Position numbers and translations under genes: made by a program
Part shown: piece by piece, positions 15,685 through 33,818 of the stretch
How positions within the stretch are numbered: position 1 is the stretch's first letter
Layout of the letters: the number at the start of each line of letters is the position of its first letter
Source: a bacterium
Lineage (GTDB): Bacteria > Patescibacteriota > Minisyncoccia > Phycocordibacterales > UBA6899
Length of the DNA: 64,000 bases
Assembly (NCBI GenBank): GCA_021851895.1
Contig: JAJZQJ010000006.1
Location: 13,861-77,860, forward strand
Direction: 5' to 3'
Notes under the pieces: generated by a model
Told to the model about the DNA's origin: nothing
The model's input: only the letters and a program-made list of their open reading frames with translations
Databases searched by the model: none

Positions 15685-16806
15685 TTAGAAACCGAGGAAT
15701 TCATTCTTCATATCTTCCCTATTTGCAACACGATGGAATCTCCGCATACCCATCAAAAGTCCAAGGCCGGCGAACTCCGTAAGTAAATGCGAGCCGCCGT
15801 AACTCATGAATGGGAGCGTCTGCCCGGTAACAGGCATCAAACCGATATTCATACCGACATGGATCATGAACTGCACGGTTATAAAGATGACGAGACCACA
15901 TGCATAGAGTGTCTCAAAATTAGTTGCACCGACCATGCCTTCATGAAGAATACGCATGATAAGTATGAGAAACGCGATGAAAAGCAACGATACGCCGATG
16001 AAGCCCCACTCCTCAGCAAAAGCCGCGAAGATGAAATCCGTCTGATACTCAGGAAGAAATTTCAAACGCGATTGTGTACCCTCTCCAATTCCCCTTCCGA
16101 TCAATTGCCCCGAACCTACGGCCACGGTCGATTGATAGGCATTCCAACCAGAGCCTCTTATATCGGTAAGTGGGGCCACGAACGTAATGATACGGTTCTT
16201 CTGATGCTGGGTGAAAACAAATCCCCACATGATACCAAACAGCACGAGACCGATGCCCAGTACACCGAAAAGATGCTTCTTGTTAATCCCAGAGACGACA
16301 GTCATGCCGAACCAGAGCGCAAGATAGATGATCGCTGAGCCAAAGTCAGGCTGTATAAGCACCAATAATGCCGGAAGTGCAACATAAGCCCCACTTATGA
16401 TGATGTGCTTCACGTGTGCGATCTCGACGTGACGCCGCGAATAATATTTCGCGAGCAACAAAATGATCACAAGCTTCATGACGTCCGCGGGCTGGAATGC
16501 GAGCAGTCCCAGATTGAACCAACCACGCGCCCCCTTCCAAGCACTTCCCATGACAAAGAGTGCAGCAAGCAAAAACACCATCACCCCATAGAGCATCGCA
16601 ATGACGTGCGAACGCCTGAGAATACGTGTATCGATGAAGGAAAAACCGATCGAAACTCCAAATGCGATCGGTATCCAGATCAACTGCTTGAGAAAGTAGG
16701 CGTTGCTTCCATGAAATGCATACATGGAGACGAGGCCCGCACCTAAAATGGGAACGAGAATAAGGTAAGTGATCCAATCAATGTGTCGTAGTTTCTCCAA
16801 GTTCAT
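15685..16806 (-). CDS. SEDS-family peptidoglycan glycosyltransferase (FtsW/RodA)
   Basis: 373 aa, 10 TM; conserved FLPEYQTDFIFA and PDFGSAII motifs. Confidence 0.8.
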   Translation of the reverse strand: MNLEKLRHIDWITYLILVPILGAGLVSMYAFHGSNAYFLKQLIWIPIAFGVSIGFSFIDTRILRRSHVIAMLYGVMVFLLAALFVMGSAWKGARGWFNLGLLAFQPADVMKLVIILLLAKYYSRRHVEIAHVKHIIISGAYVALPALLVLIQPDFGSAIIYLALWFGMTVVSGINKKHLFGVLGIGLVLFGIMWGFVFTQHQKNRIITFVAPLTDIRGSGWNAYQSTVAVGSGQLIGRGIGEGTQSRLKFLPEYQTDFIFAAFAEEWGFIGVSLLFIAFLILIMRILHEGMVGATNFETLYACGLVIFITVQFMIHVGMNIGLMPVTGQTLPFMSYGGSHLLTEFAGLGLLMGMRRFHRVANREDMKNEFLGF

Positions 16807-18184: not shown

Positions 18185-18262
18185 GAGACAATTATAACAT
18201 AGGGAAAAATGTGGCCTAAAACAAAACCCCCAGCACGGCATAGGGGTTGCGCACGCTCATGA

Positions 18263-18692: not shown

Positions 18693-19085
18693 TCAGCCTT
18701 GTTTCTGCGCATTCTGTGCGAAGTACTCCCCCACACGACCGACGACGGTCTTGATATCATTATCTGATTTCGATATGAAATCGATGATATTAAGCTCGAA
18801 TGCGCGCTTCATTTTTTCTGGACTTGTTGAGACCGACACAATGAGCACCGGAATGTCTTTGAACTTTTGATTCGCACGAAGATGTTCAAGAAGATCGATT
18901 CCAGACATACCTGGAAGCAAAACATCGAGCCAAATCAGATCAGGAATATGCTCCGCGAGGTGTCTCATCGCGATCTCTGCAGATGAAGCGACGATCGGCA
19001 AGAATCCGGCGTGCCTCAATTTCAATTCAACTGCCTCTGCGAGCGCGAGATCATCTTCGACAATGAGAATTTGTGGTATTTGCAT
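18693..19085 (-). CDS. Single-domain response regulator (REC)
   Basis: 130 aa; VEDD acidic pair and WLDVLLPGMSG phospho-acceptor region. Confidence 0.75.
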   Translation of the reverse strand: MQIPQILIVEDDLALAEAVELKLRHAGFLPIVASSAEIAMRHLAEHIPDLIWLDVLLPGMSGIDLLEHLRANQKFKDIPVLIVSVSTSPEKMKRAFELNIIDFISKSDNDIKTVVGRVGEYFAQNAQKQG

Positions 19086-19089
19086 GATG

Positions 19090-19548
19090 TTATAAGCCTA
19101 GTGGAACTAATGTTTCCCTGAGATCACCAACACGAAGTGTGCCCCATCCCAAGGAATCGAAGAAAACGGAAACTTGTAATCCGCGCCGTGCATTTCGATA
19201 ATACCCGATCGCTGAAACTATTTTCGGATCAGCTGTCTGTCCTGACCCACTTCCGATCGCCACACGTACGCACGCACGCAATGTGTTGCACCCATCTTGA
19301 GCCATCGGTGTCTCAAGGAGATACGAAGTCGATGTGCCGAGATTCCGGTCGCGCGCAAGCCCAAGCAAAGCATCACGCACGCCGATTTGCGCATATTGCA
19401 TTGCCTGCGCACCATCCGTGTTCGCCTGCGTCAGATAGATCCTGGCGGTCTCCACTGAAGTGACGCTGATCGCAATCAAAAATACGAGTATGCCGATCCC
19501 CAAGACGAGCGGCAAACTCGCCGCTCCGCGCTGTGTCATCAGTCTCAT
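19090..19548 (-). CDS. Membrane-anchored hypothetical protein in the pseudopilin operon
   Basis: 152 aa; N-terminal hydrophobic helix but no clear G-F-T-L-x-E prepilin motif. Confidence 0.35.
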   Translation of the reverse strand: MRLMTQRGAASLPLVLGIGILVFLIAISVTSVETARIYLTQANTDGAQAMQYAQIGVRDALLGLARDRNLGTSTSYLLETPMAQDGCNTLRACVRVAIGSGSGQTADPKIVSAIGYYRNARRGLQVSVFFDSLGWGTLRVGDLRETLVPLGL

Positions 19549-20054
19549 AAGCCATCCTTACCTACGAATAACGCACCATCGATCGTTCGGAGCATTGCAG
19601 GCGCAGCCTTATGCGATAAGAGGACGTGATACCCGATACTCGTAGTCGTTGCATTCAATCTTTGCTCGAAATATTCTCTTCGAGTGAAAGAGACATTCTC
19701 TACAACAACATTTGTACTTGTTATCGATCGCGTCCCTCGCCCAGAGATACGCACCAAGGCATCGCCGTTTTGCTCGATGAGCACGCCGCCAAGACTTCCA
19801 ACCAGCGTGAGTACTGTTGACGTCCCCGATGACAGCGGTGTCACCACTTGCGTTGCGTCGACAAGATCACCCCGCATCGTGTTGATGATATCTTGTGCAC
19901 CATTAGCAAGATCGTTTCTTCGATCATGCTCGGTTTGTGCACCGAGTGCCGCGATAAAATAATTCGAAAGCACGACTCCTATGATCGATAAAATGGCCAC
20001 ATACATGAGGATTTCAATGATAGACATTCCCGTTTTTCGATTTGGAGTTTGCAT
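19545..20054 (-). CDS. Pseudopilin / minor type IV pilin
   Basis: Start at MQTPNRKTGMSIIEILMYV: class III prepilin signal G-M-S-I-I-E followed by a hydrophobic helix. Confidence 0.65.
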   Translation of the reverse strand: MQTPNRKTGMSIIEILMYVAILSIIGVVLSNYFIAALGAQTEHDRRNDLANGAQDIINTMRGDLVDATQVVTPLSSGTSTVLTLVGSLGGVLIEQNGDALVRISGRGTRSITSTNVVVENVSFTRREYFEQRLNATTTSIGYHVLLSHKAAPAMLRTIDGALFVGKDGL

Positions 20055-20065
20055 AACAGCATTGT

Positions 20066-21388
20066 TTATGGTGACCACGAAACAAACACTTGATCGACCA
20101 CGGGGGTGCTCACACCCTGATTGACGCAATCGTCGGCACAAAGTTGTACTTTATATCGATAGTATTCTTTCCCATTGACTGCTGCTACGCAACCGGAACG
20201 GAACAGATCGAATGGAATATCAGGACCCAGAGTGGTGAACCAGTCACCACTACTACAGGTCGCTCCGCCCACATAGTTCCAGCCCCCGACAGAACATGTC
20301 GGATAATCACTTGCCCCGTTTGCACACGATGCACTCGCAAACTGAAAACGCACCTTGCCTACATTTCCATTTGCACCACCGAGCACTCCTCTCCAAGTAA
20401 GGCTGTTATAGAGCACGTCGCCCGTTGCGCCCGTATCAAGCACCGCACTCTCAGCTTCTCCTGTTGCAGGGAACCCCCCACAACCACTCTGCGCAGGATG
20501 GAACACGTACGAAAGCACGAGCTTCATCGACACGCTACTCAAGGTGATCCCCTTTGGGTCAATAGTGAATTGCTGGGTATATGCCCCGCCTGTTGCGTGC
20601 TGAAATACATCCTTTGCATTTACTGAAAGCAGATCGAACTTCGCTGGGTTCGGAGTGGCGGGCAATGCATACGTAACTCCATCGCGAAGGGGATCATTGA
20701 AATATAGCGAGACCGTCCCCGCTCCATCGTAATGTCCTGAAAGCTCGACATATGCACTCGTCACTGCCCCACTGATCGCAGAGATGTCATCATTGATCGC
20801 ATAGGAGATTGGGAGTGTCATCATACTTGTGATAGCAGGCACACCGCTGATGAAGTATTCGACAGTCTTTGTTTTTTCAGTACTCGGTAGACCATCTGGG
20901 CAATTATTTCCGATCTCACGAGTATATGAATTCGTCGCATGTACCGAAACCGTAGAAAGCGACACGCCATTCGCGAGCAACGTTAGCGTATGCATATATG
21001 TCCCCGCCGTTGTGGCTGCGAGTTTATGTGCTCTATCAATATATATGAATGAAAATGTTGCGGAATCTGGCACATTCGGTAAAGTGAACGTCTGATCACT
21101 GAGTGGGTCTCCATCGATGCGTACTACGAAGGAACCACCTCCTTGATACAATCCATCAATGCTAAGATAGACCTTCATCGTACCAGATGCGCCGACCACC
21201 TCTCCTCCGCTAATTGAGAAATCGATGGTCTTTGACCCGGTGATGTCCTGATTGCCGGCAAGCACCAATGTGCGCGTTGACACATCCACCTCTCGCGCAA
21301 AGACAGAAAAAGCCACCGTAAGAGAGCCGGCAAAGATACAGAGGAATATGACGATAGATTTTTTGCTGTATTTCAACATGATGATCAC
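20066..21388 (-). CDS. Secreted hypothetical protein (440 aa) in the pseudopilin operon
   Basis: Signal-peptide-like N-terminus; Cys-rich C-terminus; no recognised domain. Confidence 0.5.
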   Translation of the reverse strand: MIIMLKYSKKSIVIFLCIFAGSLTVAFSVFAREVDVSTRTLVLAGNQDITGSKTIDFSISGGEVVGASGTMKVYLSIDGLYQGGGSFVVRIDGDPLSDQTFTLPNVPDSATFSFIYIDRAHKLAATTAGTYMHTLTLLANGVSLSTVSVHATNSYTREIGNNCPDGLPSTEKTKTVEYFISGVPAITSMMTLPISYAINDDISAISGAVTSAYVELSGHYDGAGTVSLYFNDPLRDGVTYALPATPNPAKFDLLSVNAKDVFQHATGGAYTQQFTIDPKGITLSSVSMKLVLSYVFHPAQSGCGGFPATGEAESAVLDTGATGDVLYNSLTWRGVLGGANGNVGKVRFQFASASCANGASDYPTCSVGGWNYVGGATCSSGDWFTTLGPDIPFDLFRSGCVAAVNGKEYYRYKVQLCADDCVNQGVSTPVVDQVFVSWSP

Positions 21389-21411
21389 TCAGAACATTAT
21401 GATAACGATAC

Positions 21412-22017
21412 TCATAAGGGGATGCTTATATCCCCCATATCTGTACGCAACACATATCCCCAATGTTTCGATCCCTCATCAATATAGAATGCGATGCCGA
21501 CGATATGTGCATGTGCGAAATATGGATTCGCGACGAGCTGAGCGAGTGCTTCTTTCGAGTCAGGAAAACGCTGTGGCATCGGTAAATATACTGGCGCATG
21601 CACAGTAACGGGTACATCGCTTATGACACCACCACTTCCTAACTCAATGCGGCGAACGGTACTGCTCGCGTCATAAAGTATTTCGTAACGCATACTCGTT
21701 CCATCGGGATACAACTCTGCGAGCGAACGCACTGCAAATATATGGAGTTGCCGTCCTGCGACCAATGCGATCGCGTGTTTAAGTGTGATCGCATTCATAG
21801 GCCCCTTGCCTGCATCAATAGCGACAGGAGCAGCGGAGAAATCGGGATAGCGCAATACGGTATGTCGGCTTGTGGTCGCTGCGCTACCCTCTCGATCACT
21901 CGCGCTGAAAGATAATTGTGCTTCCTGTCTACCAAGATAGGATACGAAAATCGTCGCAGCCAATGTGCAGCATAAGACACTTCCCCATATGAGTTTTCTG
22001 TATGATTTTTTCATCAT
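21412..22017 (-). CDS. Membrane-anchored hypothetical protein (about 200 aa, start at MMKKSYRK)
   Basis: Its ATG overlaps the TGA of the upstream giant gene (ATGA), suggesting translational coupling. Confidence 0.4.
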   Translation of the reverse strand: MMKKSYRKLIWGSVLCCTLAATIFVSYLGRQEAQLSFSASDREGSAATTSRHTVLRYPDFSAAPVAIDAGKGPMNAITLKHAIALVAGRQLHIFAVRSLAELYPDGTSMRYEILYDASSTVRRIELGSGGVISDVPVTVHAPVYLPMPQRFPDSKEALAQLVANPYFAHAHIVGIAFYIDEGSKHWGYVLRTDMGDISIPL

Positions 22018-25000
22018 GGTGTATAGCTGTAAGTGACAATGATATCCGCGCCCACACCATAAAGTGTCGTATCGGGACCAGCGGTGACCTCGATGGTATT
22101 CGTTCCTGGTGAAAGCAGTAATGCTGAAACCTTGTGATAGAGACGCCATGGAGAAAGTATCGTGCGACCACCTGGGAGCGCATAAGTTACCGAGCTCTCA
22201 TTATCAACCTTTACGGAAAGTGACGCGTTTGCAGTAGCACCTGAAGTTCCATATATACCGCGGATATCCAAGAAAATACTCTGGTACTGTATACTCTGCT
22301 CTGGTATGACGATACTAAAAGTACTTGTTGCACTACCACCACTTTGCACAATGTCACCATTTGAGAGCACGCCGAAGTACACTGTCTTTGACGGCTGCGA
22401 TACTCCGAGCGTCGTGAATTGCTGCACACTACTCCAAGTATGATTACCCGCAGCGTCACTCGCATAGAGTCGGTAATAATAGAGCGTATTTGAATCGAGA
22501 TTCACGAGCGAGGCGTTGTGGTCAAGCGTAAGGGACAGCGATTCCGCCTGACAACCTGACGCTGCATCACAGTTATCGCTAAAAATTCCCGTCTTATTGA
22601 GCTCTATAAGTTGTGTCGCTGGCTCATTTGTATTCCACGTGATCGTTGCGCCATTTGTTGTCGGTGTTCCTGCGCTGATATTAATGATCGAAGGAGGAGT
22701 ACGATCAACGAGAAAATCTGCTGCGGTCTCTAGATTCGGACTTAAAGAAGGATACGCTGCCCATGGACCATAAAAAGTTTTTGTCCCCGCAGTATACTCA
22801 ATACGCGCCTGCCAATGATATGCGTTCTCCGAGACGGGAACCGCAACCTTACAGTTATTCGCATCAACATTACAGTCGATAGTCCCTGGCCCAGGAACTG
22901 CTGGTCCAAGAACCTCAGAAGCACAGACGGACTGTCCACAAACAAACGTTGTTCCTATAGGCTGCACCTCAACAGCGAGCCGCATACTTCCGGAAACGCC
23001 CGATGATGAAGTGAGCACGCCCCCAAAGAAGACGGTATTTGCCCACGTCGCTCCGCCGACATTAAGCACAGACATGCCCGGAGTGGGATTGGTGCCACCA
23101 AGCATCGACGTGTTTTGTGTCGTCGTCGCGTATTGCGTAAGTCCAGAAGGCGCAGCAGGTTGATTATTGTTGAGTACGTTGAACGACAATTGCCCCGCAA
23201 AGAATGTTCCTGCGGTCAACGATGCGACCGTAGCACCTATCGATGCCCCAAAGGGGACCTCGGTCACCACACTTGTATCCGCCCACGACCCCCAATAGTC
23301 TGCAACCGCTCCCCCAACGATGACTTGGTCTGCTGAAGAGAATGCGGGTGGTAGCGTGACGTCACCATCGATGCCAACCGTACCGGCCGGACACACACCA
23401 TCACCAGACGGACAGAAATGATTCCCAGTGAGTGTGATCGCATCTCCTGCACCGCCACTCGTGGGCGTAATGCTCAGCAATCTTGGTCGCACATGGAACG
23501 GATTCGCATAATCCACACTCGCAGCATTTGCAACTGGAAAATCACGGACCAAAGTGATCGTGCCGACATAAAGATTGTCAGGAATCACGGCGGGGACCTC
23601 GACCTTCACTGCGGTATTACCCCAGCTCTCTATGACAACTGAGTCAATAGGCGCCGTGCACGTGGTCACACTACACCCCAAGATACGCACAAGACCAGCC
23701 CCCTGGTTTGCACCGAAACGTGTACCCAGCAATGTGATGACGCCATCAGTATCGCCAGTTGCAAACTCCTTCGCGCCATCTGGGCCAAGGCCAACAGGAA
23801 CGAGTAAACCTGTTATCTGCGGGAAAAGATAGAAGTCGAGTCCTCCCGCACTCACCCCACTTGCGGTGACCGACAAAGCGCCAACACCTCCATAGTTCGC
23901 ACCGAAATCAGTATCTGCGTTACCCGAAACACTTGCATCGAGATTTATGACGATCTGCGTATTACTCCATGAAACAACATTCGCATCGCTAATCGTGGTC
24001 TCTGTCGCTCCCCTTATCGACACTCTATTTTGTGCAGTCGCCCTATTCCCTACTCCTGGATCTGCACCAAAACCGAAACCATTGATGGTTATCGTTTGTG
24101 CGCTCGCGCCGATACCGAGCCTTCCACCGCAGTTCACACAACCTGAAGCATAACTGAGTGTATTTTCTGAAGTATTCACGTAATCGGTCATGTTTGGTGC
24201 GATCACTCCTCGCACCGTTGGAGTCCCCACGAGATATTCATCATCAAGCGGTGAGGCACTCGTATCGATGTCATTGATCGAATTGATCACAAGCGTGATC
24301 GTCTGACCAACAGATGGAGAGACACCTGCGTTTGCATACGTCGCTTTAGGAAATACATAAAACGTATCTCCAGGATTCAGTGTAAGAGATGGCGAAAATG
24401 AAAAAGTGACCGTGTTTCCTGACACCACTCCAGTGATCGACTGCGTTATGCCATTGTTTGGATTCGCATCCGTATCGATATCGAGTGACCAGCCACTTGT
24501 CTCAGCGAGATTTGCAGTTCCCGTATTCGTAAGGAGGACACGCGAAAGCGTGATCGGTGTCTGTCCTCTCGCATGGAAAACATATCCACTACAATCACCC
24601 TGCCCCACACAAAGTGGGTCAGCGATATATGCCGTACCCCCTGACGGAAGTGGCGTCGTCGTATTCGCGGCAGTAGTACTTGCGATGAAGAGTGCGGGCG
24701 CATTCTGAAGCGCAGCGCCCATGCGTGCATACATACTGTCAGGTACCGGATATGCCCATGTCGTCAATTCGGGGACAGAGCCTGGTGCGACACTTGCAAA
24801 AGAAACGCTTGTCCCGGATAACGTGACACGCTTCATGTATCCCACATTGCTTGCATCGTCAATGAAAAGCAGTGCTTGTGACGGTGCGCCACTTATGGGA
24901 AGTGCCATGATCTGTCCTTCTCCAGTGATCGTCGTTGGCGACGTCGCATTCGTTGGCTGTGCCACAAAACTTCCACCATTCACCGAAAGGTACCAATCGA

Positions 25001-26078
25001 TGCCATTAGTCACATCATTTCCATAAACAGCGACTGCTGCACGATTCGCACCATCGACGAGCCAAAATGCATCGGTTGGCATTTGCCCATCATTGATCGG
25101 ATTGACCGAGGCATCAACTGATGGTGCCCCGAAGCTCGTACCACTCCACATATCGAACTCACACAAATACTGCGCAACAGAGGGTTCCATAGTGCAGGTA
25201 GATAATATGATCTCGTTTGTCGACGGACTCGGCACAAGGCGCATGAAATCGCCGTAACCGGAAAGTGCAGTCAATGAACCGATCGCAGACCACGTACCTC
25301 CGGCAGACCTTGTTATCCATCGCGCACGATTTGAAGAATTCTCGCCCATCACTACAAGCATGTCGCCAGAAAGTGCCTCAAAGGAAACATCCATACCACG
25401 CATCGGTGGATAGATACCATTGAATCCCGTATATACCGTCGCATTGTTCGTGATCCTATTCCCATAATATTGCCAACTCGAGCCATTCCAGAACGCCGCA
25501 CTACCCGATCGTGTATCATCGAGATAAGCGAGGCCGAGCTGATTCGAATTCGGGCGTGCAGCCATCTTGATCGCGATGATATTTCCGGAAGTCGGACCAT
25601 TTGTTCTCTCTAACTGCCCCGACCATGCCCCGCCGCTCCAGGTGCGGTAATAGAACGTCGATTTGTTTCCCAATATTCTGCCTCTATATGCAATGACGGC
25701 TCTTCCAGTCGTTTGCTCATATGCGATATCGAAACGTGCGACATTACTGTCTCCAACAGATGCAGTCCAGTCCGCTATCCAATTCTTCCCATCAGCTGAA
25801 TGATACACATGGAGGATTCCACCTGAGTCTTGGACTCCAAGCACGAAATCTTGAGCGATGGGACTCGCTTTAGCAATGATGAATTTCGCATTGACACCCG
25901 CAATCGCAATAGAAGGAGAACCAAGTGTCCCAAAAACTTCGCTATGAAAACGCTGCATGACGTCTCCCCCGCTTTCCCAAAGCACTGGCCCCTCATCGAC
26001 AAATGCCCTTGCGTGTACAGGCAAGATGCCGATCAATAAAAAGAAAAGGAGGAAAAATTGTTTTTGTACGTAATGCAT
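22014..26078 (-). CDS. Giant secreted/cell-surface protein (about 1354 aa), Cys-rich with IPT/TIG-like and fibronectin-III-like modules; candidate pilus-associated adhesin
   Basis: Signal peptide. Repeated TLxGxxF...VxSWxxT IPT-like segments. An FN3-like segment TITWNTNEPATQ...YYYRLYASDAAGN. Many paired-Cys motifs. Embedded between pseudopilin genes. Confidence 0.7.
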   Translation of the reverse strand: MHYVQKQFFLLFFLLIGILPVHARAFVDEGPVLWESGGDVMQRFHSEVFGTLGSPSIAIAGVNAKFIIAKASPIAQDFVLGVQDSGGILHVYHSADGKNWIADWTASVGDSNVARFDIAYEQTTGRAVIAYRGRILGNKSTFYYRTWSGGAWSGQLERTNGPTSGNIIAIKMAARPNSNQLGLAYLDDTRSGSAAFWNGSSWQYYGNRITNNATVYTGFNGIYPPMRGMDVSFEALSGDMLVVMGENSSNRARWITRSAGGTWSAIGSLTALSGYGDFMRLVPSPSTNEIILSTCTMEPSVAQYLCEFDMWSGTSFGAPSVDASVNPINDGQMPTDAFWLVDGANRAAVAVYGNDVTNGIDWYLSVNGGSFVAQPTNATSPTTITGEGQIMALPISGAPSQALLFIDDASNVGYMKRVTLSGTSVSFASVAPGSVPELTTWAYPVPDSMYARMGAALQNAPALFIASTTAANTTTPLPSGGTAYIADPLCVGQGDCSGYVFHARGQTPITLSRVLLTNTGTANLAETSGWSLDIDTDANPNNGITQSITGVVSGNTVTFSFSPSLTLNPGDTFYVFPKATYANAGVSPSVGQTITLVINSINDIDTSASPLDDEYLVGTPTVRGVIAPNMTDYVNTSENTLSYASGCVNCGGRLGIGASAQTITINGFGFGADPGVGNRATAQNRVSIRGATETTISDANVVSWSNTQIVINLDASVSGNADTDFGANYGGVGALSVTASGVSAGGLDFYLFPQITGLLVPVGLGPDGAKEFATGDTDGVITLLGTRFGANQGAGLVRILGCSVTTCTAPIDSVVIESWGNTAVKVEVPAVIPDNLYVGTITLVRDFPVANAASVDYANPFHVRPRLLSITPTSGGAGDAITLTGNHFCPSGDGVCPAGTVGIDGDVTLPPAFSSADQVIVGGAVADYWGSWADTSVVTEVPFGASIGATVASLTAGTFFAGQLSFNVLNNNQPAAPSGLTQYATTTQNTSMLGGTNPTPGMSVLNVGGATWANTVFFGGVLTSSSGVSGSMRLAVEVQPIGTTFVCGQSVCASEVLGPAVPGPGTIDCNVDANNCKVAVPVSENAYHWQARIEYTAGTKTFYGPWAAYPSLSPNLETAADFLVDRTPPSIINISAGTPTTNGATITWNTNEPATQLIELNKTGIFSDNCDAASGCQAESLSLTLDHNASLVNLDSNTLYYYRLYASDAAGNHTWSSVQQFTTLGVSQPSKTVYFGVLSNGDIVQSGGSATSTFSIVIPEQSIQYQSIFLDIRGIYGTSGATANASLSVKVDNESSVTYALPGGRTILSPWRLYHKVSALLLSPGTNTIEVTAGPDTTLYGVGADIIVTYSYTP

Positions 26079-26088
26079 AATTTCATAT

Positions 26089-26565
26089 TCAACCGCCAAC
26101 TCTCGTTATGACCGGTGTCCCACGATCATCGATACTGACCATTAACCTAACCGCACTATAGCCAATGGTGAATGTCGTCGATGCAGTTGCTCCCGAGAGC
26201 GGCGCGAATTCTACACTCCGCGGCACGCTTGAAGGATCGATCCAAGAGACACCAACGGGGAGCGTCTTCGTTTCAGTCGAAAATGGTTCAGCAGCATAAT
26301 CTCGAGTACCTGTCGCGTAGAATTCCCACGATGCGCTCGCCGGCAATGCCCGCACTCCCCAGGTCATTCCCCTATCTCCGGCGATCGCTCTTCCTCTTGC
26401 GGCTTCGATATCCGCAACAAATGACTGCATTGCACTACCCGCAGCAACTTCAATGATCGATGACCGGAAATACATGATTCCCGCTGCGCTGAGCACAGTA
26501 AGTACTGCCAGTGTTATCAACACCTCCAATATAGTGAACGCTCGGTTGTCTCTTGTGGTTTTCAT
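26089..26565 (-). CDS. Pseudopilin
   Basis: Start at MKTTRDNRAFTILEVLITLAVL: canonical prepilin N-terminus. Confidence 0.7.
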   Translation of the reverse strand: MKTTRDNRAFTILEVLITLAVLTVLSAAGIMYFRSSIIEVAAGSAMQSFVADIEAARGRAIAGDRGMTWGVRALPASASWEFYATGTRDYAAEPFSTETKTLPVGVSWIDPSSVPRSVEFAPLSGATASTTFTIGYSAVRLMVSIDDRGTPVITRVGG

Positions 26566-26587
26566 ATGCAAGTCACCGCATGAACGA

Positions 26588-27220
26588 TCAGCAACCAGTG
26601 CAAAGTTGCAATTTATCTCCGACCTGGATGTTCTTATGTGTCCCGAGCAGTATATTCGGCGTCTCACATCCCACAGTAGAAGAACCAACGAGACTCCAAC
26701 CTGTTTGACCGCAAACGATATTTCGCCATCGAGTAAGTACTGTCGACACGACGAGCGATTCACCCGTTCCCCACATAGCATTTGCAGTGATGAGGAGAGA
26801 CCCAGAATCGATCACGCTTGATGAAGTTGCAGTAAGCGCAAGCGGTGTCGTTGTCGCCGCAATCGTCCTGGAAGCATCTTGCACGGTGAAGGAAAGTGCG
26901 TAGGAAGTACCATCTATTACAACGGTGCTCGTTCCGATGGATGGCACATAGTGGTTTGCGGTGAGCGTCATCGCGTAGGGCGTGTTTCTTTGCAATTGTG
27001 CTATAGAACCCCAACTTTCCTCCGATGCAGCGCGAACCCTCGTGAGCATTTCCTCGATAGCGCTGCTCGCGACTGTTCTCATTCTCGACGTTTTCTCACT
27101 GACGAATCCTGCGGATAACGCCTGCGCGATGATCGTCGATATGGCGAGAAAGAGCGCGAGCGAGAGCAGCACTTCAATGAGCAGCACACCCCTTTGTGTT
27201 TGTCTGGCCATTATCTGCAT
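26588..27220 (-). CDS. Pseudopilin with a Cys-rich C-terminus
   Basis: N-terminus QRGVLLIEVLLSLALF is prepilin-like (G-x-L-L-I-E). Confidence 0.6.
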   Translation of the reverse strand: MQIMARQTQRGVLLIEVLLSLALFLAISTIIAQALSAGFVSEKTSRMRTVASSAIEEMLTRVRAASEESWGSIAQLQRNTPYAMTLTANHYVPSIGTSTVVIDGTSYALSFTVQDASRTIAATTTPLALTATSSSVIDSGSLLITANAMWGTGESLVVSTVLTRWRNIVCGQTGWSLVGSSTVGCETPNILLGTHKNIQVGDKLQLCTGC

Positions 27221-27223
27221 ACG

Positions 27224-28435
27224 CTAAGATACTTTCGTCATAAGCTGATAGATCGGCAGGAGTATACTCATCGCGATCAAACCGACGACGACACCCATAA
27301 CAAGGAGAAGTAGCGGTTCGAGCAGTGTGGTCATGTTTCGAAGGAGATAATCCACTTCGTCATCATAGAAATCAGAAACTTCAACCAAGATATCTCCGAG
27401 CTTGCCGGTCTCCTCACCCACTCGCGTGAGTCCAACAACAATTCCAGGAAAAAGCTCTGGATGCTTTTCGAGTTCTCCCGAAAGCGGTGCGCCACCCATT
27501 ACTGCCTGGCGCGCTTCGCGTGTTGCGCGTTCCATTGCACGATGACCTACACTTCCTGCGGTCGTCTCAAGTGCTTCCATCATGGGAATTCCTGCAACAA
27601 GCAAATTACCCAGCGTACGGGTGAAGCGCACAAGTGCAACACCATGGACAACAGTCCTTGCAATCGGTACGCGTTCAAGTGCGAGCGCAAAGAGTGCCCT
27701 ACCTTTTTCCGCTTTGCGAAACCAATAGACGATACCGCCGATACAGAAGAGGAATAATCCATCGAGCCACAGGCTGTATGAAAAGCTATTCGATAGTGCA
27801 AGGATGATGCGGGTGAGTAGTGGAAGCGCGACACCCGATTGCGCGAAGGCTCCAGAAAGTCTCGGGAGTACGAAAATGAGCAACAAGAGAATGACTGCAC
27901 CTGAACCGATGACAAGAATGAGCGGATACACGAGTGCACCCTTCACACGCTGCCGTAAACCGAAATCACGCTTCAGGTACTCTGCGATGAGTGCAAGCGT
28001 CTTCCCAAGCGTTCCCGAAAGTTCACCAGACTGAAGAAGGCCAATAAATGCGGGATTGAAATACTGTTTATACGGGGTGAATGCTTGGGACAATGATGCA
28101 CCACCACGCACCGACGCTTCAACACCTGCGATCATCGATTTCATCGCGGGGCGCTTATTGTCTTTTGAGAGTAGTGAAAGTGCGCCAAGCACAGTAACTC
28201 CGGCCTGCAAAGCGATTCCAAAATTTCGTATGAAAAAGAGAATATCTGCCGCTGCCGGCGCACGCTTTGAAAAACGGCGAAACGGCGTTTCGCCCTCATG
28301 CATCAGAGAAAGTTCCACGGGTGTTATCCCTCGCTGCATGAGTAGAGTAACGGCATGCTCGCGCGTTGCACCCTCGATGCTCCCCTCTACGTGTGCACCC
28401 TTTTTGCTTATTGCTTTGTAGACATAGACTGGCAT
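27224..28435 (-). CDS. pilC: PilC / GspF-family platform protein, paralog 2
   Basis: 403 aa; two GspF repeats; immediately downstream of the second pilB. Confidence 0.85.
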   Translation of the reverse strand: MPVYVYKAISKKGAHVEGSIEGATREHAVTLLMQRGITPVELSLMHEGETPFRRFSKRAPAAADILFFIRNFGIALQAGVTVLGALSLLSKDNKRPAMKSMIAGVEASVRGGASLSQAFTPYKQYFNPAFIGLLQSGELSGTLGKTLALIAEYLKRDFGLRQRVKGALVYPLILVIGSGAVILLLLIFVLPRLSGAFAQSGVALPLLTRIILALSNSFSYSLWLDGLFLFCIGGIVYWFRKAEKGRALFALALERVPIARTVVHGVALVRFTRTLGNLLVAGIPMMEALETTAGSVGHRAMERATREARQAVMGGAPLSGELEKHPELFPGIVVGLTRVGEETGKLGDILVEVSDFYDDEVDYLLRNMTTLLEPLLLLVMGVVVGLIAMSILLPIYQLMTKVS

Positions 28436-28449
28436 AGCTCTCTCAATGA

Positions 28450-30159
28450 TTATTCGCGTGCAACACGCAGCACCTCCTCAATAGTTGTCGATCCAAGCTC
28501 TACTTTGCGGAGCCCATCTTCGAACATCGTGACCATGCCTTCCTTTATTGCCTGCTTGCGCAGCGTCGCAGAGTCCTTCCCTTCTACAATGAGCGTGCGC
28601 ACCGCATCGCTTATTGGGAACACTTCAAAAATGCCCATCTGTCCAAGATATCCCGTCATGCTGCAAACCGAACAACCTTTTCCTTTAAACAACGTCTGTG
28701 GAAGATGCGTAATATGCTCTTCGCCTCGCTCAGCGAGCTCTGCTTTGATGCGCGCATTCGTTGCATCATCAGCGGGATACGAGGTGATACATGTCGTACA
28801 TACGCGTCGCACCAAACGCTGCGCAATGACGACATTCACCGTACTTGAGAGCAGAAACGGTTCAGCGCCCATATCGACGAGTCGCGGCACTGCGCTTGGC
28901 GCATCAGTCGTATGCAACGAAGAGAGGACGCGATGTCCGGTAAGTGCCGCATGTATTGCGATCTCTACGGTTTCATTATCGCGAATCTCTCCGATCATGA
29001 TGATGTCGGGGTTCTGTCTGAGTAATGCGCGAAGACCATTTGCGAACGTGATACCTGTCTTCGTATTCACTTGTGTTTGATTGATGCGGGGAAACTCATA
29101 TTCAACGGGATCTTCGATCGTCGTGATGTTCACATCAGGAGTATTCAGGATCTGAAGCAATGCATAGAGCGTTGTCGTTTTTCCGTGACCCGTTGGACCA
29201 GTGACCAAAATGAGTCCATGAGGTCGATGAATCTCCAACTCAAGTGCCTTGATCGCGGATTCCTCCAACCCAAGACTCGAAAGAGACAACGGCCTTGCTG
29301 ATGAGCGCAAAAGACGCATCTCAGCTTTCTCTCCGTGAAGCACCGGAATGATATTCACACGAACATCAGTTGATGCACCCTCCTCGCTCTCGAAAGCGAA
29401 ACGGCCATCCTGAGGAACACGATGTTCGTCGATTGCGAGATTTGCGAGCACCTTCACGCGCGCAACAAGTGCAGTGATGAGCTCGGGAGGCAGCTGCACG
29501 ACAACGCGCATGACTCCATCAACGCGGAAACGCACGAGCATAGCATCGGGTAGAGGCTCAAAGTGGACGTCCGATGCATTCAACGTAATTGCATGATCAA
29601 GTATTTTCGTGAGGATCGTTGTAATTGAAACAGAGGTTGCCTTTGCATTGAGCGGCTGATCAATTTCGTGCGCAGCCTCCTCCGCATGACCTTTCAGGAT
29701 CGTCTCGAAATCACCGCCGAAAGTCGGCTGATACTGCTTGAGCCCATAATGGAAGCTCGAAGAACCCATGAGCGCGGGCTCCACCCAAGCAGAAAGAAGC
29801 GCAGCAACATAGGCTCTTGTCCCATAATCGAGCGGATCAAGCATTGCAAGCTGCGCAACACCGGACTCTTTATTAAAGCCATAGAGTATGACACGTTTCG
29901 ATTTCGCGACAGCCTCAGGAAGCATCGACAATACCGCCGCATCGATTTCGATACGATGGAGATTGATGACAGGAACACCATAGTACGGCTGCAACGTCTC
30001 AAGAAAGATATCTTCGGAAATCACCCCTCTTCCGATGAGGACATCCTCGATCTCGTGGCCCGAATGCGCCGCTTCGGTCGCAGCGAGCTCAAAATCGTCT
30101 TCCGATACGAAGCCGGAATCTATGAGAAAACCACGGAGTGCCTCCTTCGTTATATGCAT
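28450..30159 (-). CDS. pilB: PilB / GspE-family assembly ATPase, paralog 2
   Basis: 569 aa; Walker A GPTGHGKTTTLY; tetra-Cys motif CTTC...CSVC; N-terminal GSPII_E_N-like domain. Confidence 0.85.
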   Translation of the reverse strand: MHITKEALRGFLIDSGFVSEDDFELAATEAAHSGHEIEDVLIGRGVISEDIFLETLQPYYGVPVINLHRIEIDAAVLSMLPEAVAKSKRVILYGFNKESGVAQLAMLDPLDYGTRAYVAALLSAWVEPALMGSSSFHYGLKQYQPTFGGDFETILKGHAEEAAHEIDQPLNAKATSVSITTILTKILDHAITLNASDVHFEPLPDAMLVRFRVDGVMRVVVQLPPELITALVARVKVLANLAIDEHRVPQDGRFAFESEEGASTDVRVNIIPVLHGEKAEMRLLRSSARPLSLSSLGLEESAIKALELEIHRPHGLILVTGPTGHGKTTTLYALLQILNTPDVNITTIEDPVEYEFPRINQTQVNTKTGITFANGLRALLRQNPDIIMIGEIRDNETVEIAIHAALTGHRVLSSLHTTDAPSAVPRLVDMGAEPFLLSSTVNVVIAQRLVRRVCTTCITSYPADDATNARIKAELAERGEEHITHLPQTLFKGKGCSVCSMTGYLGQMGIFEVFPISDAVRTLIVEGKDSATLRKQAIKEGMVTMFEDGLRKVELGSTTIEEVLRVARE

Positions 30160-30232
30160 ATACTAAAGTATACCACATATACAAAAAGCTACTCATAAAG
30201 AGTAGTGGGGACAGCATGCGCGCCAAGGAAAG

Positions 30233-30910
30233 TCAGTGCGTGAAGCGGAGCATGTCAAAAATAGGAAAGACGATTTCCATCTTTGTTCCGGAGAAATAGA
30301 CAAGCACAGTGGCAATGATGAGCGACGGGTAGAGTGGAGCCCGTCCCCCGCCCCTTATGGTCACAAAAACCACATGAATGAAAAAGAGTACGAAAGCGAC
30401 GATCACATAGAGAAGAATATCTGGCCAACCGACAATGAGACTACCTGCGATGAAAATATTAATGTCGAGCGCAGAGAGTAGGTGCGGCCGATACGCTCGG
30501 AGTGCCCTGAGTAGGATGTAGAGGAGCAACGTCGTAAGCAAACCCCAGAAGAGCGCCAGCCAGAAATGCGACAACATGTAGTCAAAAAAATATCCATGGC
30601 GCAAACGCAATAGCGGACCAAAGAGTGCGTAAAGTCCCGGCAGTGGCACGCCCGAAGGAAGCGGAAGATAGGTAAGCGGTCGAGTAAACTGATTGTCAAA
30701 CCAATGCACATATTGCCCCGCAGAAAGGAATATTCCGTAAAGAATACGCGAGAGTATATATCCGATATGAATCCAACTCATCCGCAAAATCCGCAGGTCT
30801 GTTCGCAAGGAGCCCCAAGCGAGCAGCAAGACATAGCAGAGAAGGCACGCCATGTTGAAGTAGACGAGCAGATGCCCAAAGATGTCGGCGCGCATTAAAG
30901 TTCCTATCAT
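30233..30910 (-). CDS. Polytopic membrane protein, candidate prepilin peptidase (A24-like) by position
   Basis: 225 aa, 6-7 TM; sits between the pilin gene and pilB; conserved Asp candidates present, but no GGGD motif. Confidence 0.4.
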   Translation of the reverse strand: MIGTLMRADIFGHLLVYFNMACLLCYVLLLAWGSLRTDLRILRMSWIHIGYILSRILYGIFLSAGQYVHWFDNQFTRPLTYLPLPSGVPLPGLYALFGPLLRLRHGYFFDYMLSHFWLALFWGLLTTLLLYILLRALRAYRPHLLSALDINIFIAGSLIVGWPDILLYVIVAFVLFFIHVVFVTIRGGGRAPLYPSLIIATVLVYFSGTKMEIVFPIFDMLRFTH

Positions 30911-30976
30911 ATATTATATTATATCAAGTCTTCAGAGGAATACAAAAAGCGCCGAAGCGCCTTATGTATTTTCCTT

Positions 30977-31675
30977 TTAGAAACTCCCTTGTCCGAGAAT
31001 ACGAATATTCGTACCCACTTCAAAGAGATTGTCATTATCACCTCCATCGGACTGCATGCGATTGGTGACCTTTGTGAATTCATCGCTCTCGAGACGTGCA
31101 TCTACCTCATACGTCAATGTTGTTGAATTACATGCATAGCGATAGACGTAGTCGGAGTTTACCGGCGCGGTGAGGGTCGTCAGCTTGTTCACGGGATCAA
31201 CAGGAAGATTTGATATCGGAGACCCCGAAGTGAGTGCTTCAAAGTTCACTGGGATCCACCCAGAACCATCTACGCGCGCGAGATTTGCGAGAGTGACTTG
31301 GGCTGCGGTTGGCTGCGTCGTCACACCAGAAAGATTGATGCCCGTTATGCTCCCTGTATCAGAGGGCAAACTGTACCAGATCTTATTCCCTGTCGTCCAG
31401 CCAGATGCGCTGCGACAAAGACTATTGATAGTCGATGTTGGACTACCATCGAGATTCGGATCCGAGATCGTTGTCGTATAAACACCCATTGCAGTCTTGA
31501 GTGTGTTGAGATCGGAGATACGCTGAGAGTCACGAGATTTTCGCAATGTTTCTACCGGATTGATCACGATGATCAACATCACGGAAAGAATAGCGATGAT
31601 GGCGATCACGATGAGCAACTCGAGCAGTGTAAAACCCTCATGCTGCCTCTCTTGTTTTACAAATAGAGATTGCAT
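30977..31675 (-). CDS. pilA: Type IV (major) pilin
   Basis: Leader MQSLFVKQERQHE followed by GFTLLELLIVIAIIAIL, a textbook class III signal. Confidence 0.8.
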   Translation of the reverse strand: MQSLFVKQERQHEGFTLLELLIVIAIIAILSVMLIIVINPVETLRKSRDSQRISDLNTLKTAMGVYTTTISDPNLDGSPTSTINSLCRSASGWTTGNKIWYSLPSDTGSITGINLSGVTTQPTAAQVTLANLARVDGSGWIPVNFEALTSGSPISNLPVDPVNKLTTLTAPVNSDYVYRYACNSTTLTYEVDARLESDEFTKVTNRMQSDGGDNDNLFEVGTNIRILGQGSF

Positions 31676-31858
31676 ATTGAATGAAGCACGTAAATGATGA
31701 TTAAGTGTAAAGCTTCGTATACTTTACTTATGTATAGTATATCATACGCTAGTCACAAGAGGCAATGCTTTACGCGTATACTGTGGATAGTACTGTGCAT
31801 ATGTATAGTATGTGCTACATGGTATACTTTACGTATGACGAGCAAGTCGCTCAAACGG

Positions 31859-33229
31859 ATGCGTTTTCTCATGAATGCACGCGAACGTATCGTGGGTATA
31901 TCGTTTACGGACGCGACTATTCACTGTGCACTCCGAGACAGCATCGATAGCGACGCGCCCGCACGCTTTCTCTCTTGGCCACTCCCTCCGAACATCATCG
32001 CACACGGTGTTGTACTCGACCCCGAGGGCCTTGCGCGAAATATCGAGCAAGCACTCGATACTTTTAAAGTACAGATCTCCTTTGCAAACCTTTCCATCCC
32101 CTCTGATCTTATTTTCTCGAGCATGCTTCGGCTTCCCAAGAGCGAGCGCGCAAGCGACCGAGAGAAGGCACTCGGGTTCCTCCTCGACGTCGAACTTCCC
32201 TGGAAAAAAGATCTCGCCTATACCGATCATCACGTTTTTGAAGAAAAGAGTGAGGATCGCATCAGCATATTTTCGATAACCCGTTCCATCGCGGACCCCT
32301 ACATACTCGCAGCAGAACATGCGGGAGTCGAAGTGCTCGCCCTCGAATTCGATGCGGTGAGCATGCTTCGCCTTTCAGAGAAAAATCCAAACAATACACT
32401 CATGGTTTCGGCGACACCAACGCAGGTGAATGTAGATATCGTAAAGGATGGCGCAATTGCATTTCATTATGCGATCCCCGTCGAAAAAGTACCTGATATT
32501 ACTTCGCTAAAGTCAGAGCTCAATCACATTCGTGACTACTTCATGGCGGAAACCGGTGAATTCGTCGGAGAAGAAGTAGTAAAAATGACCCTCAACGAGA
32601 CCGCAAAGGCATTCCTCGGCGACCGCAAAAGTGACATCAATATACTCCCCGCCGCGGGGGCAGCACTGCGCAAACCGAGCCCAAAAGGAATCCATGAACT
32701 CTCACTACTCCCACTCCGCTCAAGTGAGCTTTACGTACTCCATCGCATTGCATCAGGCCTCCAACTTTTGCGCCAAGCTGCAATTGCGACCTGTATCATC
32801 CTGATCGGAGCGCACATATTGATGGTTCAAGTCCTGAACATTGTCGCGAAACAAAGCAGTGAACGTGCAATGACGGCACCGCGGTTATTTGCAAATGCCG
32901 CTCTTGTAGAGAAGCAAATGGGAATACTCAATCAAACGCTCGCGGTTGGCGATACGATCGCTTCTATTTCCCACCGCTACGGACCAATGCTCGAAATGAT
33001 CGATGGACTACAAACCGATGGCATCTCATTCAATGCGATCACGACAGGAGTCGCAAACACACCGATCACCATCGCAGGTGTCGCTGCAACGAGGGCACAA
33101 TACAATCTCTTCCGCATGCAGATCTCCTCAAACAAAGCGATCGACGTGCTCTCCTTCCCACTCGGTAATCTCGAAACGATGAATGCTATTCCATTCACCC
33201 TCTCGATAAAGATGAAACTTCCCACATAA
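31859..33229 (+). CDS. PilM-like (actin-fold) protein fused to a PilN-like TM/periplasmic segment
   Basis: N-terminal IVGISFTDATIHCAL resembles the PilM phosphate-1 region; TM helix near residue 380 followed by a periplasmic tail; start uncertain (31835-31871). Confidence 0.5.
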   Translation: MRFLMNARERIVGISFTDATIHCALRDSIDSDAPARFLSWPLPPNIIAHGVVLDPEGLARNIEQALDTFKVQISFANLSIPSDLIFSSMLRLPKSERASDREKALGFLLDVELPWKKDLAYTDHHVFEEKSEDRISIFSITRSIADPYILAAEHAGVEVLALEFDAVSMLRLSEKNPNNTLMVSATPTQVNVDIVKDGAIAFHYAIPVEKVPDITSLKSELNHIRDYFMAETGEFVGEEVVKMTLNETAKAFLGDRKSDINILPAAGAALRKPSPKGIHELSLLPLRSSELYVLHRIASGLQLLRQAAIATCIILIGAHILMVQVLNIVAKQSSERAMTAPRLFANAALVEKQMGILNQTLAVGDTIASISHRYGPMLEMIDGLQTDGISFNAITTGVANTPITIAGVAATRAQYNLFRMQISSNKAIDVLSFPLGNLETMNAIPFTLSIKMKLPT

Positions 33230-33230
33230 C

Positions 33231-33818
33231 ATGGCATCCTTACTCGACAAGACGACATTTCGCATACGCATCATCCGCGAGAGTGCACTCATCCTCGTGG
33301 TCATTTTCGCAACCTATCTCATCAACATCCAGCTCCGTGTACAGATAGAACAAACAGATGCAGCCATTGTCTCCGAGAATAATCTCTATGGCCTTCGAGA
33401 ATATCACCAAGAGACCTTCGATCTCCTTGAGCAACGTCTTGTCGCGATGAAAGCGATCACCGAGCGCATCGACAAAGCACTACCTGCGACCGAAGATATC
33501 GGTGACTTCCTCACCATACTGAGTACCTATGGCGCGAAAAATGGCGTCGTTGTGAATGTCAGTGTGGGTACCGCAGCGATCAGCACTATCCAAAAAGATG
33601 GAGTCGCGCTGCAAACGATCGCGATCGCGATCGACGTAAATGGCGAGGCGAATGCGTTGCGGCAATACATCAATGCGATCGAGCATCTCCCCTACTTCTT
33701 TGCCATCTCGGGTATCGACGAGCGCAGAGATCCCGCGAAGCCTGGGTTCCGCCATCTTGTCATCGCAGGCACACTTTGGACTAAGCCAACGCAAACGCTG
33801 ACACAAATGCAGCAATAA
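33231..33818 (+). CDS. PilO-like bitopic protein
   Basis: N-terminal TM, coiled-coil, then periplasmic domain; start coupled to the upstream stop. Confidence 0.4.
   Translation: MASLLDKTTFRIRIIRESALILVVIFATYLINIQLRVQIEQTDAAIVSENNLYGLREYHQETFDLLEQRLVAMKAITERIDKALPATEDIGDFLTILSTYGAKNGVVVNVSVGTAAISTIQKDGVALQTIAIAIDVNGEANALRQYINAIEHLPYFFAISGIDERRDPAKPGFRHLVIAGTLWTKPTQTLTQMQQ

Follow-up and report, generated by a model that had tools for sequence, protein, structure and literature searches.

Patescibacteria, or the candidate phyla radiation (CPR), make up a large share of bacterial diversity. To our knowledge, all cultivated CPR members live attached to host cells, and their host choice is largely unexplained outside one Saccharibacteria model. 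Type IV pili (T4P) are the best-supported attachment organelles of these bacteria. Here we describe a T4P operon in a 64-kb stretch of DNA from a Patescibacteria bacterium (GenBank assembly GCA_021851895.1, contig JAJZQJ010000006.1, positions 13,861 to 77,860; the whole stretch is called the window), in which two secreted non-pilin proteins, a 1354-aa protein named the giant and a 440-aa protein named p440, are encoded among minor-pilin genes. Tip complexes of minor pilins are established for GspHIJK of the type II secretion system (T2SS) and for FimU-PilVWX of type IVa pili (T4aP).

In Nanosynbacter lyticus TM7x, the minor pilin PilX2 of T4P-2 carries a PLL-type propeller and is required for efficient host binding, with rhamnose acting as an inhibitor, and PilX1 of T4P-1 carries a 'beta-jelly-roll' domain (PMC11623550). 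Large tip proteins are fastened in another way in other systems, where a minor-pilin sheet is completed by ~10 residues at the very C-terminus, supplied in trans by PilC/PilY1 or MshQ and in cis by GspK or CpaL (PMC13533445). In the modular minor pilins of Streptococcus sanguinis (PilB with a vWA module, PilC with a lectin module), the adhesive module is grafted onto the pilus via a minor pilin (PMC8179133).

On balance, we read the region as the second T4P system of this bacterium together with a tip module. We hold with moderate confidence that the giant and p440 form a split tip adhesin, PilY1-like in its logic, which recognises the host. The two proteins are most likely a sticky pilus tip, because relatives also have the C-terminal 'WSP' domain of p440 in their pilus operons, in some cases joined to a pilin. 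An earlier note on this DNA had proposed a pilus-presented adhesin module, and this proposal is strongly supported by comparative evidence, namely synteny, pilin/WSP fusions and a lectin-like head. All ORFs that it named were confirmed at their coordinates on the minus strand, and Pfam identified pilA, pilB, pilC and the two REC proteins. The pilus operon spans 18.2-31.7 kb on the minus strand, and its features, in the order of transcription and with positions in the window, are as follows (L numbers denote the related loci described below):

31736-31765: promoter-like site upstream of pilA
30977..31675, minus: pilA, major pilin candidate, 232 aa; EG/FTLLELL, Pfam N_methyl E=1.3e-7
30946-30963: terminator-like hairpin just 3' of pilA
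30233..30910, minus: conserved polytopic membrane protein, 225 aa; orthologues at the same position in L001, L002, L004 and L007
28450..30159, minus: pilB2, extension ATPase with MshEN N-domain; T2SSE E=2.7e-124, MshEN E=4.2e-6
27224..28435, minus: pilC2, platform protein; T2SSF E=1.6e-52, two repeats
26588..27220, minus: mp210, minor pilin, 210 aa; QRG/VLLIEVL with Glu5, 4 Cys, C-terminal ..LCTGC
26089..26565, minus: mp158, minor pilin, 158 aa, GspH/ComGD-like; RA/FTILE, N_methyl 25.4 bits (cut-off 21.2)
22014..26078, minus: giant, 1354 aa; Sec signal peptide, propeller head, seven beta-sandwich domains
21412..22017, minus: tm201, N-terminally anchored, 201 aa; its start overlaps the giant stop (ATGA, gap -4)
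20066-21388, minus: p440, 440-aa secreted protein
20489..21301, minus: two tandem X domains of p440, residues 30-300; X-domain HMM matches at 37-155 and 166-300
20069..20470, minus: WSP domain of p440, residues 307-440, ending ..VFVSWSP-COOH
19545..20054, minus: mp169, minor pilin, 169 aa; TG/MSIIEIL, N_methyl 17.6 bits, sub-threshold
19090..19548, minus: mp152, prepilin-like, 152 aa, lacking Glu5; RG/AASLPLVLG, Pro at +5
18693..19085, minus: REC 1, single-domain response regulator; Response_reg E=9.9e-20, kept in L001-L005 and L009
18263..18643, minus: REC 2, single-domain response regulator, 126 aa; Response_reg E=2.8e-17, start moved to Met40
18225-18248: terminator-like hairpin 3' of REC 2

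Gene order and the WSP domain across relatives

The genes from pilB to REC 1 are separated by -4 to 23 nt, and ATGA start/stop overlaps occur at two junctions, mp169/mp152 and giant/tm201, the latter as previously noticed. The start of REC 2 is probably at 18643, because orthologues align from residue 40 of the ORF, and with this start it would therefore not overlap REC 1. Terminator-like hairpins were confined to three sites, namely 3' of pilA, ahead of pilB (behind the 225-aa gene) and 3' of REC 2; the promoter and terminator scans did no better than on shuffled sequence and lend weak support at most. The spacing and the lack of intergenic terminator-like hairpins suggest that the operon is co-transcribed.

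We fetched 10 loci (L001-L007 and L009-L011) through homologues of the giant and p440. The results showed that the order pilC, two pilins, giant, (tm201), p440 and two pilins was kept in L001-L005, and also in L006, L007, L010 and L011 at 33-35% identity; for the ten loci as a whole, the order was kept at 35-65% giant identity. In every fetched locus with a p440 homologue or a homologue of the C-terminal region of the giant, the gene stood between pilC plus two pseudopilins on one side and two more pseudopilins on the other. The case that the earlier note had named as refuting its proposal, homologues without any link to pili, was thus not borne out: such linkage was found in every fetched locus bar one, L008, where P0026, a distant relative sharing only the variable (type-B) head, lies outside any pilus locus. 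tm201, which has no family match in Pfam or NCBIfam, is missing in L001 and L004.

p440 is composed of two X domains, which are an internal duplication (hhalign probability 99%), and the WSP domain of ~132 residues, whose terminal pattern ..V[SN]W[SA]P is invariant in homologues. Its start is probably at an ATG three codons in, giving 437 aa. In a profile search of 1.84 billion representatives, the WSP domain matched 628 protein clusters, 487 of them at E<=1e-10, and was almost always located at the extreme C-terminus of proteins of 97-2437 aa. Among 151 proteins screened (149 other best representative clusters and the two fusions P0006 and P0024), 116 end in WSP or WAP. Profile searches with WSP seeds gave no match in Pfam, NCBIfam or PDB sequences, a p440 profile search against the PDB returned nothing meaningful, and a literature search of incomplete coverage turned up no account of either the domain or the split architecture. 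The WSP domain is therefore a widespread domain absent from current family databases. Its named carriers are Terrybacteria, Kerfeldbacteria, Falkowbacteria and Paceibacterota metagenome-assembled genomes; Falkowbacteria, the one lineage checked, belongs to the Parcubacteria group of CPR.

An mp210-type pilin was fused N-terminal to the WSP domain in 16 of the 151 screened proteins (E 1e-14 to 1e-48), and the pilin part of these fusions is nearly complete, with a normal G/xxxxE prepilin motif. We then scanned metagenomes with the WSP alignment, found 121 relatives, kept the best 80 loci and typed them by HMMs built from the window operon. The WSP domain ended <=3 aa from the C-terminus in 79 of the 80. 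The gene directly after the WSP gene was of the mp169 type in 63 of the 71 loci with enough downstream sequence, and the second gene after it was of the mp152 type in 47 of 53, the exceptions being mostly due to an intervening tm201 or an insertion. Where at least 9 kb of flank was present, pilB/pilC lay upstream in 8 of 13 loci, and in the other 5 the genes ahead of the WSP gene, in several cases very long giant genes, fill most of the flank. Fusions on the one hand and gene adjacency on the other thus link the WSP domain to mp210, mp169 and mp152.

Three architectures were distinguished among these loci. In the split architecture (giant, tm201 and an X-X-WSP protein; 26 complete loci), the giant was upstream in 25/26 and tm201 was present in 21/26; X-type domains were confined to loci of this type. 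In the single-chain architecture, one protein of 600-2004 aa ends in FN3-WSP, with a separate giant in 0/7 and tm201 in 2/7. In the pilin-fused architecture (L015, L025 and L026), the WSP domain is carried by an mp210-type pilin, there is neither a giant nor a separate mp210, and the mp169-type pilin is enlarged to 726-1273 aa; across L015, L017, L025 and L026, mp169-type pilins measure 706-1273 aa. Two independent fusions, P0006 (L003) and P0024 (L009), join a giant head to the p440 WSP domain, and both omit the FN3-X end of the giant, tm201 and the X domains of p440. The giant-plus-p440 and single-chain forms have complementary distributions, and the payload, X domains and WSP domain behave as one evolutionary unit.

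The operon pilB-pilC-mp210-mp158-giant-tm201-p440-mp169-mp152-REC-REC is thus tightly packed and conserved. The earlier note had proposed conservation of this gene order in relatives as a check; the order held in the 10 fetched loci and its core was found again in the 80 metagenomic loci, which points to conservation far beyond chance.

Some loci carry further genes. A ~320-aa Beta-lactamase2 protein lies between the minor pilins and the giant in L006 (4096-5070), L007 (8016-8990), L009 (3479-4438) and L010 (1556-2476); this insert of the subfamily with another head (see below) has a serine beta-lactamase/PBP fold and could act on peptidoglycan. Small genes for four-helix bundles (23S_rRNA_IVP, weak bAvd match) are located inside the pilus tip operon of L011 (1040-1429) and L010 (11295-11675). 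bAvd is an accessory protein of diversity-generating retroelements, and no reverse transcriptase was seen in the fetched flanks of L010 and L011. L010 also has, between the giant and tm201, an extra 888-aa gene (6652-9318) with faint PD40/Tricorn propeller matches, and L063 has two giant-type genes in tandem (631-9055; 903 and 1668 aa). The extra or tandem large genes suggest multi-headed or alternative adhesins.

The giant and the pilus genes around it

A search of 5.8 billion proteins found only 11 full-length homologues of the giant, with 45-65% identity. Its Sec-type signal peptide, recognised earlier, ends in ..PVHA/RAF, and the propeller begins at about residue 25. The domains are:

24684..26006, minus: head, residues 25-465, beta-propeller of about seven 4-stranded blades in the AlphaFold2 model
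22701..24671, minus: stalk, residues 470-1126; beta-sandwich (470-625), three TIG-like Ig domains (626-980), Cys-stapled sandwich (981-1126)
22401..22700, minus: FN3-type domain, residues 1127-1226; Pur_ac_phosph_N 35.8 bits (cut-off 30) at 1129-1223, fn3 E=0.029
22017..22400, minus: C-terminal X beta-sandwich, residues 1227-1354, homologous to the repeated domain of p440

The AlphaFold2 model of residues 25-480 is an all-beta propeller (pLDDT 78.5, pTM 0.84). The best PDB matches by Foldseek were the 7-bladed lectins PLL, PLL2-5, PHL and BP39L (E 2.5e-9 to 5e-8, TM 0.46-0.62), followed by fungal fucose lectins and sialidases; PilY1 was not among the top 50. The head is thus predicted to be a propeller closest to PLL-type lectins, at the level of the fold only. 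Residues 481-1354 were modelled as seven beta-sandwich domains (pLDDT 83.6), with the low pTM expected for beads on a string, and the fold matches of the stalk in the PDB were Ig/FN3 strings such as contactin, Robo and TEP1. Residues 626-750 and 751-866 form an internal repeat (hhalign probability 93%).

The FN3-like segment that the earlier note had seen corresponds to the Pur_ac_phosph_N match above, and this domain was matched in 10 of the 11 homologues. As for the IPT/TIG-like segments that it described, TIG (PF01833) gave no Pfam match in the window giant; it was matched in 2 of the 11 homologues (best E=1.4e-7), and the model does contain Ig-like sandwiches. The description of the giant as Cys-rich with many paired cysteines held for the pairing only: there are 16 cysteines (1.18%), arranged as 8 pairs 3-11 residues apart, and 12 of them are invariant in homologues. 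The MAFFT placement of fusion P0006 had raised the possibility that the Cys-stapled domain is an internal WSP domain, which we rejected (hhalign probability 0.8%, no hmmsearch match). The giant contains 40.7% Gly+Ala+Ser+Thr and 3.5% Lys+Glu. Exposed pilins in the TM7x study have ~36-47% Gly+Ala+Ser+Thr (PMC11623550); the giant is within this range, well above intracellular proteins.

hhalign of whole p440 against the whole giant was uninformative, and we compared them domain by domain. The X domain of the giant aligned with p440 residues 166-300 (hhalign probability 92.5%, E=4.8e-7, 115 columns). The terminus of the giant, ..TYxYxP (here ..TYSYTP), is invariant even in relatives at 35% identity.

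A search from the Falkowbacteria orthologue (L006) found a second giant subfamily. All members of both subfamilies share residues ~630-1354, and an unrelated ~770-aa head, itself related to proteins outside pilus loci, takes the place of the propeller in P0016-P0020, P0022 and P0024. Receptor-binding proteins are expected to show this pattern, in which the base is conserved and the head can be exchanged.

The class III signal (short leader, G/A, Glu at +5, hydrophobic helix) is present in pilA, mp210, mp158 and mp169, in line with the three pseudopilins that the earlier note had called at 26588-27220, 26089-26565 and 19545-20054; N_methyl scored above its cut-off for pilA and mp158 only. mp158 also gave GspH just below the cut-off (E=6.7e-4), and its ComGD/GspH matches were weak. 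By size and position, mp210 appears GspJ/PilW-like and mp169 GspI/PilV-like; mp210 showed weak N-terminal ComGE/PilV matches, and it is the pilin kind that is fused to the WSP domain in other lineages. The ORF at 19090-19548 was present as called, and its former label of a plain transmembrane protein was replaced: mp152 has a prepilin-like N-terminus in which Pro at +5 is kept in 9 orthologues, together with a conserved A..YA..G.RDAL motif, and a sub-threshold PilX_N match was found in 1 of the 9 (E=0.053), with no PDB profile match. A prepilin-like N-terminus lacking Glu at +5 is a hallmark of the GspK/PilX class, and mp152 is a likely fourth pseudopilin of this kind, with sub-threshold profile support. 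With mp158 as the H-like, mp210 as the J-like, mp169 as the I-like and mp152 as the K-like candidate, the operon would therefore have the canonical count of four minor pilins.

The 225-aa membrane protein at 30233-30910 had been taken for a PilD-like protease. The protein and its 4 orthologues had no Pfam, NCBIfam or PDB-profile match, Peptidase_A24 included, and the candidate acidic positions vary among D, E and H, with no invariant Asp pair. We rejected the PilD identity on the grounds of the missing A24 match and of the missing two invariant catalytic Asp. Further pilus genes in the window are:

31694..33818, plus: pilM-like (511 aa) and pilO-like (195 aa) genes, divergent; TIGR01175 pilM E=3.2e-6, PilO E=0.012 (sub-threshold)
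355-5027, minus: second pilus motor set, with pilC1 (355-1590), a 355-aa pilT-like ATPase (1688-2755), REC (2765-3184) and pilB1 with MshEN (3300-5027)
5114-5506: further REC gene beside the second motor set

L007 has a PilM_2 gene at the same relative position as the pilM-like gene. The second pilB/pilC/pilT-like set indicates two T4P systems in this genome, and two T4P systems per genome have been reported for Saccharibacteria. An orphan prepilin-type gene lies far from both pilus clusters (59917-60537, plus strand; N_methyl E=1.9e-7).

Directly after the hairpin behind the REC genes, a gene on the minus strand (16778-18184) encodes a 468-aa membrane-anchored protein with CARDB-like and VWA domains. 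It was kept at the same place in L002-L005 and not in L001, L006, L007, L010 and L011. It may be a further accessory of the pilus, since VWA domains occur in PilY1 and other pilus adhesins. Elsewhere in the window, an ATP:guanido phosphotransferase of the arginine/creatine-kinase family with N and C domains (9309-10802, plus strand), an unusual enzyme for a reduced CPR genome, is also found near the locus in L003 (14907-16043). On the minus strand, there are genes for a large secreted protein of 1285 aa with a lamin-tail (LTD) domain (36244-40101) and for three secreted proteins of ~670-700 aa with an N-terminal PG_binding_1 domain (42976-45075, 45438-47438 and 48348-50429; domain residues 96-167, 66-114 and 103-151).

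A candidate tip assembly and its alternatives

We propose that the four pseudopilins (H-, J-, I- and K-like, the last lacking Glu5) would form an initiation/tip complex as in T2SS and T4aP. p440 would act as an adaptor whose WSP domain is predicted to dock beside mp210 on the pseudopilin complex; the invariant strand at the C-terminus of this domain may be added to a pilin sheet, by analogy with PilC/PilY1/MshQ and PilK (PMC13533445). The X domains of p440 would hold the homologous C-terminal X domain of the giant in a non-covalent joint, and the giant would project a sugar-binding head tens of nanometres past the tip, toward a host or surface glycan. tm201 may be a membrane-anchored helper that assembles this two-chain version. 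In lineages with a single-chain 'payload-FN3-WSP' protein, a peptide bond would replace the joint between p440 and the giant and the same result would be achieved covalently. The element linking to the pilins thus appears to be p440 rather than the giant.

Several points weigh against this scheme. Physical contact, tip location and co-transcription are inferred from sequence. Fold matches like those of the head (TM 0.47-0.61, rmsd >7 A) would be given by propellers in general, and its sugar binding is a prediction. The last strand of the giant is an integral, confidently modelled part of its C-terminal sandwich, and strand donation by the C-terminus of p440 is proposed by analogy only. The H/I/J/K labels of the pseudopilins reflect size, order, Glu5 status and sub-threshold matches, and profile searches of mp152 and mp210 against the PDB gave nothing meaningful. 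The 80 loci are biased to closer relatives, because the scan used one peptide pattern.

It is unlikely that the pseudopilin system is instead a T2SS-like exporter, with the WSP domain serving as a C-terminal cargo or attachment tag like the CTD of the type IX secretion system (T9SS) and the giant and p440 being released or attached to the wall. As in T9SS cargo, a conserved domain closes proteins that differ greatly in length, one pilin/WSP fusion is annotated at NCBI as a 'type II secretion system protein', and the minor pilins give weak GspH/ComG-type matches. The number and position of WSP genes tell otherwise. The window has one WSP ORF, and contigs of 326-893 kb have one WSP locus each among the best 80; many dispersed cargo genes per genome, as for a sorting tag, were not seen across the window and these long contigs, which are not complete genomes. 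The WSP gene keeps a fixed position between pilin genes, its domain is fused to Glu5-bearing pilins in the proteins counted above, and the terminus ..WSP lacks a hydrophobic tail, unlike sortase-type signals among sorting tags such as LPXTG and PEP-CTERM. The window also has a major pilin, pilM/pilO-like genes and a pilT-like ATPase. Moreover, CPR cells are thought to be monoderm, so that there would be no outer membrane to cross.

A second alternative keeps the module at the tip but assigns the pilus to DNA uptake, twitching or general attachment, so that the giant binds DNA, abiotic surfaces or surfaces of its own species. CPR bacteria rely on the import of nucleotides, the window has a TatD-type DNase gene close to the operon (34251-35072), and the ComGC/ComGD/ComGE-type matches of the minor pilins, although weak, would fit such a pilus. 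We consider it improbable, since the nearest folds of the head are sugar-binding lectins and sialidases and not DNA binders, the exchange of heads on a conserved base would suit a ligand that diversifies, for example host surfaces, and TM7x T4P-2 mutants have a host-binding defect without a competence defect (PMC11623550).

It is improbable to the same degree that the giant docks on the pilins directly via its own ..TYSYTP, like PilY1, with p440 as a second independent tip protein or a chaperone. The giant shares with PilY1 and MshQ (PMC13533445) that it is no pilin, that it is exported by Sec and that its gene follows two minor-pilin genes, and its invariant C-terminus would suit this role. 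However, the last strand of the giant aligns with internal strands of the p440 X domains, which also end ..Y.[FY].P. PilY1-style strand donation by the giant is unlikely, because its terminus is integral in the model and homologous to these internal strands, and for the same reason ..TYSYTP more probably represents the final strand of the X fold. In addition, the natural fusions drop the C-terminus of the giant and keep the WSP domain of p440, and the single-chain versions end in WSP and not in an X domain.

Least probable is that the giant, tm201 and p440 are ordinary cell-surface proteins co-regulated with the pilus genes, for although their link to the filament is deduced from sequence and P0026 is not encoded in a pilus locus, the genes invariably stand between pilin genes in ~90 loci, pilin/WSP fusions exist, and the split and single-chain forms are distributed in a complementary manner.

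The preferred reading of the giant and p440 as a split tip adhesin can be extended to a broader and more tentative one, which we put a little short of an even chance: the WSP domain may be a plug used across Parcubacteria/CPR to fasten payloads to the T4P tip complex, in trans with two chains, within a single chain, or by fusion to a J-like pilin. In that case, the host-recognition determinant of any such episymbiont could be identified from the gene directly ahead of the mp169/mp152 pair, and the exchange of heads on a constant base would resemble that of receptor-binding proteins in phages. The locus and its ~90 relatives suggest a general and easily recognised signature of a pilus-tip adhesin in Parcubacteria-group CPR, namely a constant docking domain beside two fixed pseudopilin genes with exchangeable lectin-like heads, which would yield testable candidates for host specificity straight from metagenomes. 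In addition, a rule that is now emerging, namely that a large tip protein is anchored to the minor-pilin complex through its extreme C-terminus, would then hold for a deep-branching monoderm lineage as well.

Comparison with known systems

The operon resembles the T2SS pseudopilus tip GspH-I-J-K in having four minor pseudopilins, one of which lacks Glu5, and in the near-threshold GspH match of mp158. It differs from a T2SS in that the window has no secretin or other T2SS-specific parts and has a major pilin, pilM/pilO-like genes and a pilT-like ATPase. The modular minor pilins of S. sanguinis find a counterpart in the loci with enlarged mp169-type pilins (L015, L017, L025 and L026; PMC8179133), whereas the window payload is a separate two-chain assembly that is not grafted on a pilin.

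MshQ of the Vibrio MSHA pilus and CpaL/TadG of Tad pili are large non-PilY1 proteins encoded next to pilIJK-like genes, and in both a minor-pilin sheet would, by prediction, be completed with residues of their extreme C-terminus (PMC13533445). The pilin/WSP fusions resemble the cis case of CpaL, and p440 resembles the trans case of MshQ. No homology to either was detected, and WSP is a whole conserved domain, in contrast to a peptide of ~10 residues.

PilY1/PilC, the T4aP tip adhesins of Pseudomonas, Neisseria and Myxococcus, share with the giant that a large Sec-exported non-pilin is encoded among core minor-pilin genes and that a beta-propeller is combined with a variable region. In both systems the proposed base is an initiation/tip complex of four pilins, and the docking protein has an invariant extreme C-terminus. 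The PilY1/PilC family gave no Pfam match in the giant or its 11 homologues even at E<=1, and the PDB profile search returned FN3 only. We rejected the giant as a PilY1 homologue, given the lack of a Pfam or PDB sequence signal and the absence of PilY1 among the top fold matches, and kept the likeness as a functional analogy. Unlike in PilY1/PilC, the propeller in the window forms the N-terminal and variable part of the protein and has PLL-type lectins as its nearest folds; the docking element is apparently a separate 440-aa protein with an undescribed ~132-aa domain; and the adhesin gene comes before the I- and K-like pilin genes and not after them.

The closest experimental analogue of the window system is PilX2 of TM7x. 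Both are of CPR origin, both belong to a second T4P locus with its own pilB and pilC, and both have a PLL-type heptabladed propeller as the candidate glycan-binding adhesin; the giant belongs to this propeller class at the level of the fold, and is set beside PilX2 by the described fold and not by sequence. The two differ in how the propeller is carried. In PilX2 it is fused directly to a pilin domain, whereas the giant starts with a cleavable Sec-type signal peptide in place of a pilin-like helix, and its propeller stands on a ~900-residue Ig-like stalk of a non-pilin that is probably linked to the pilus through an adaptor.

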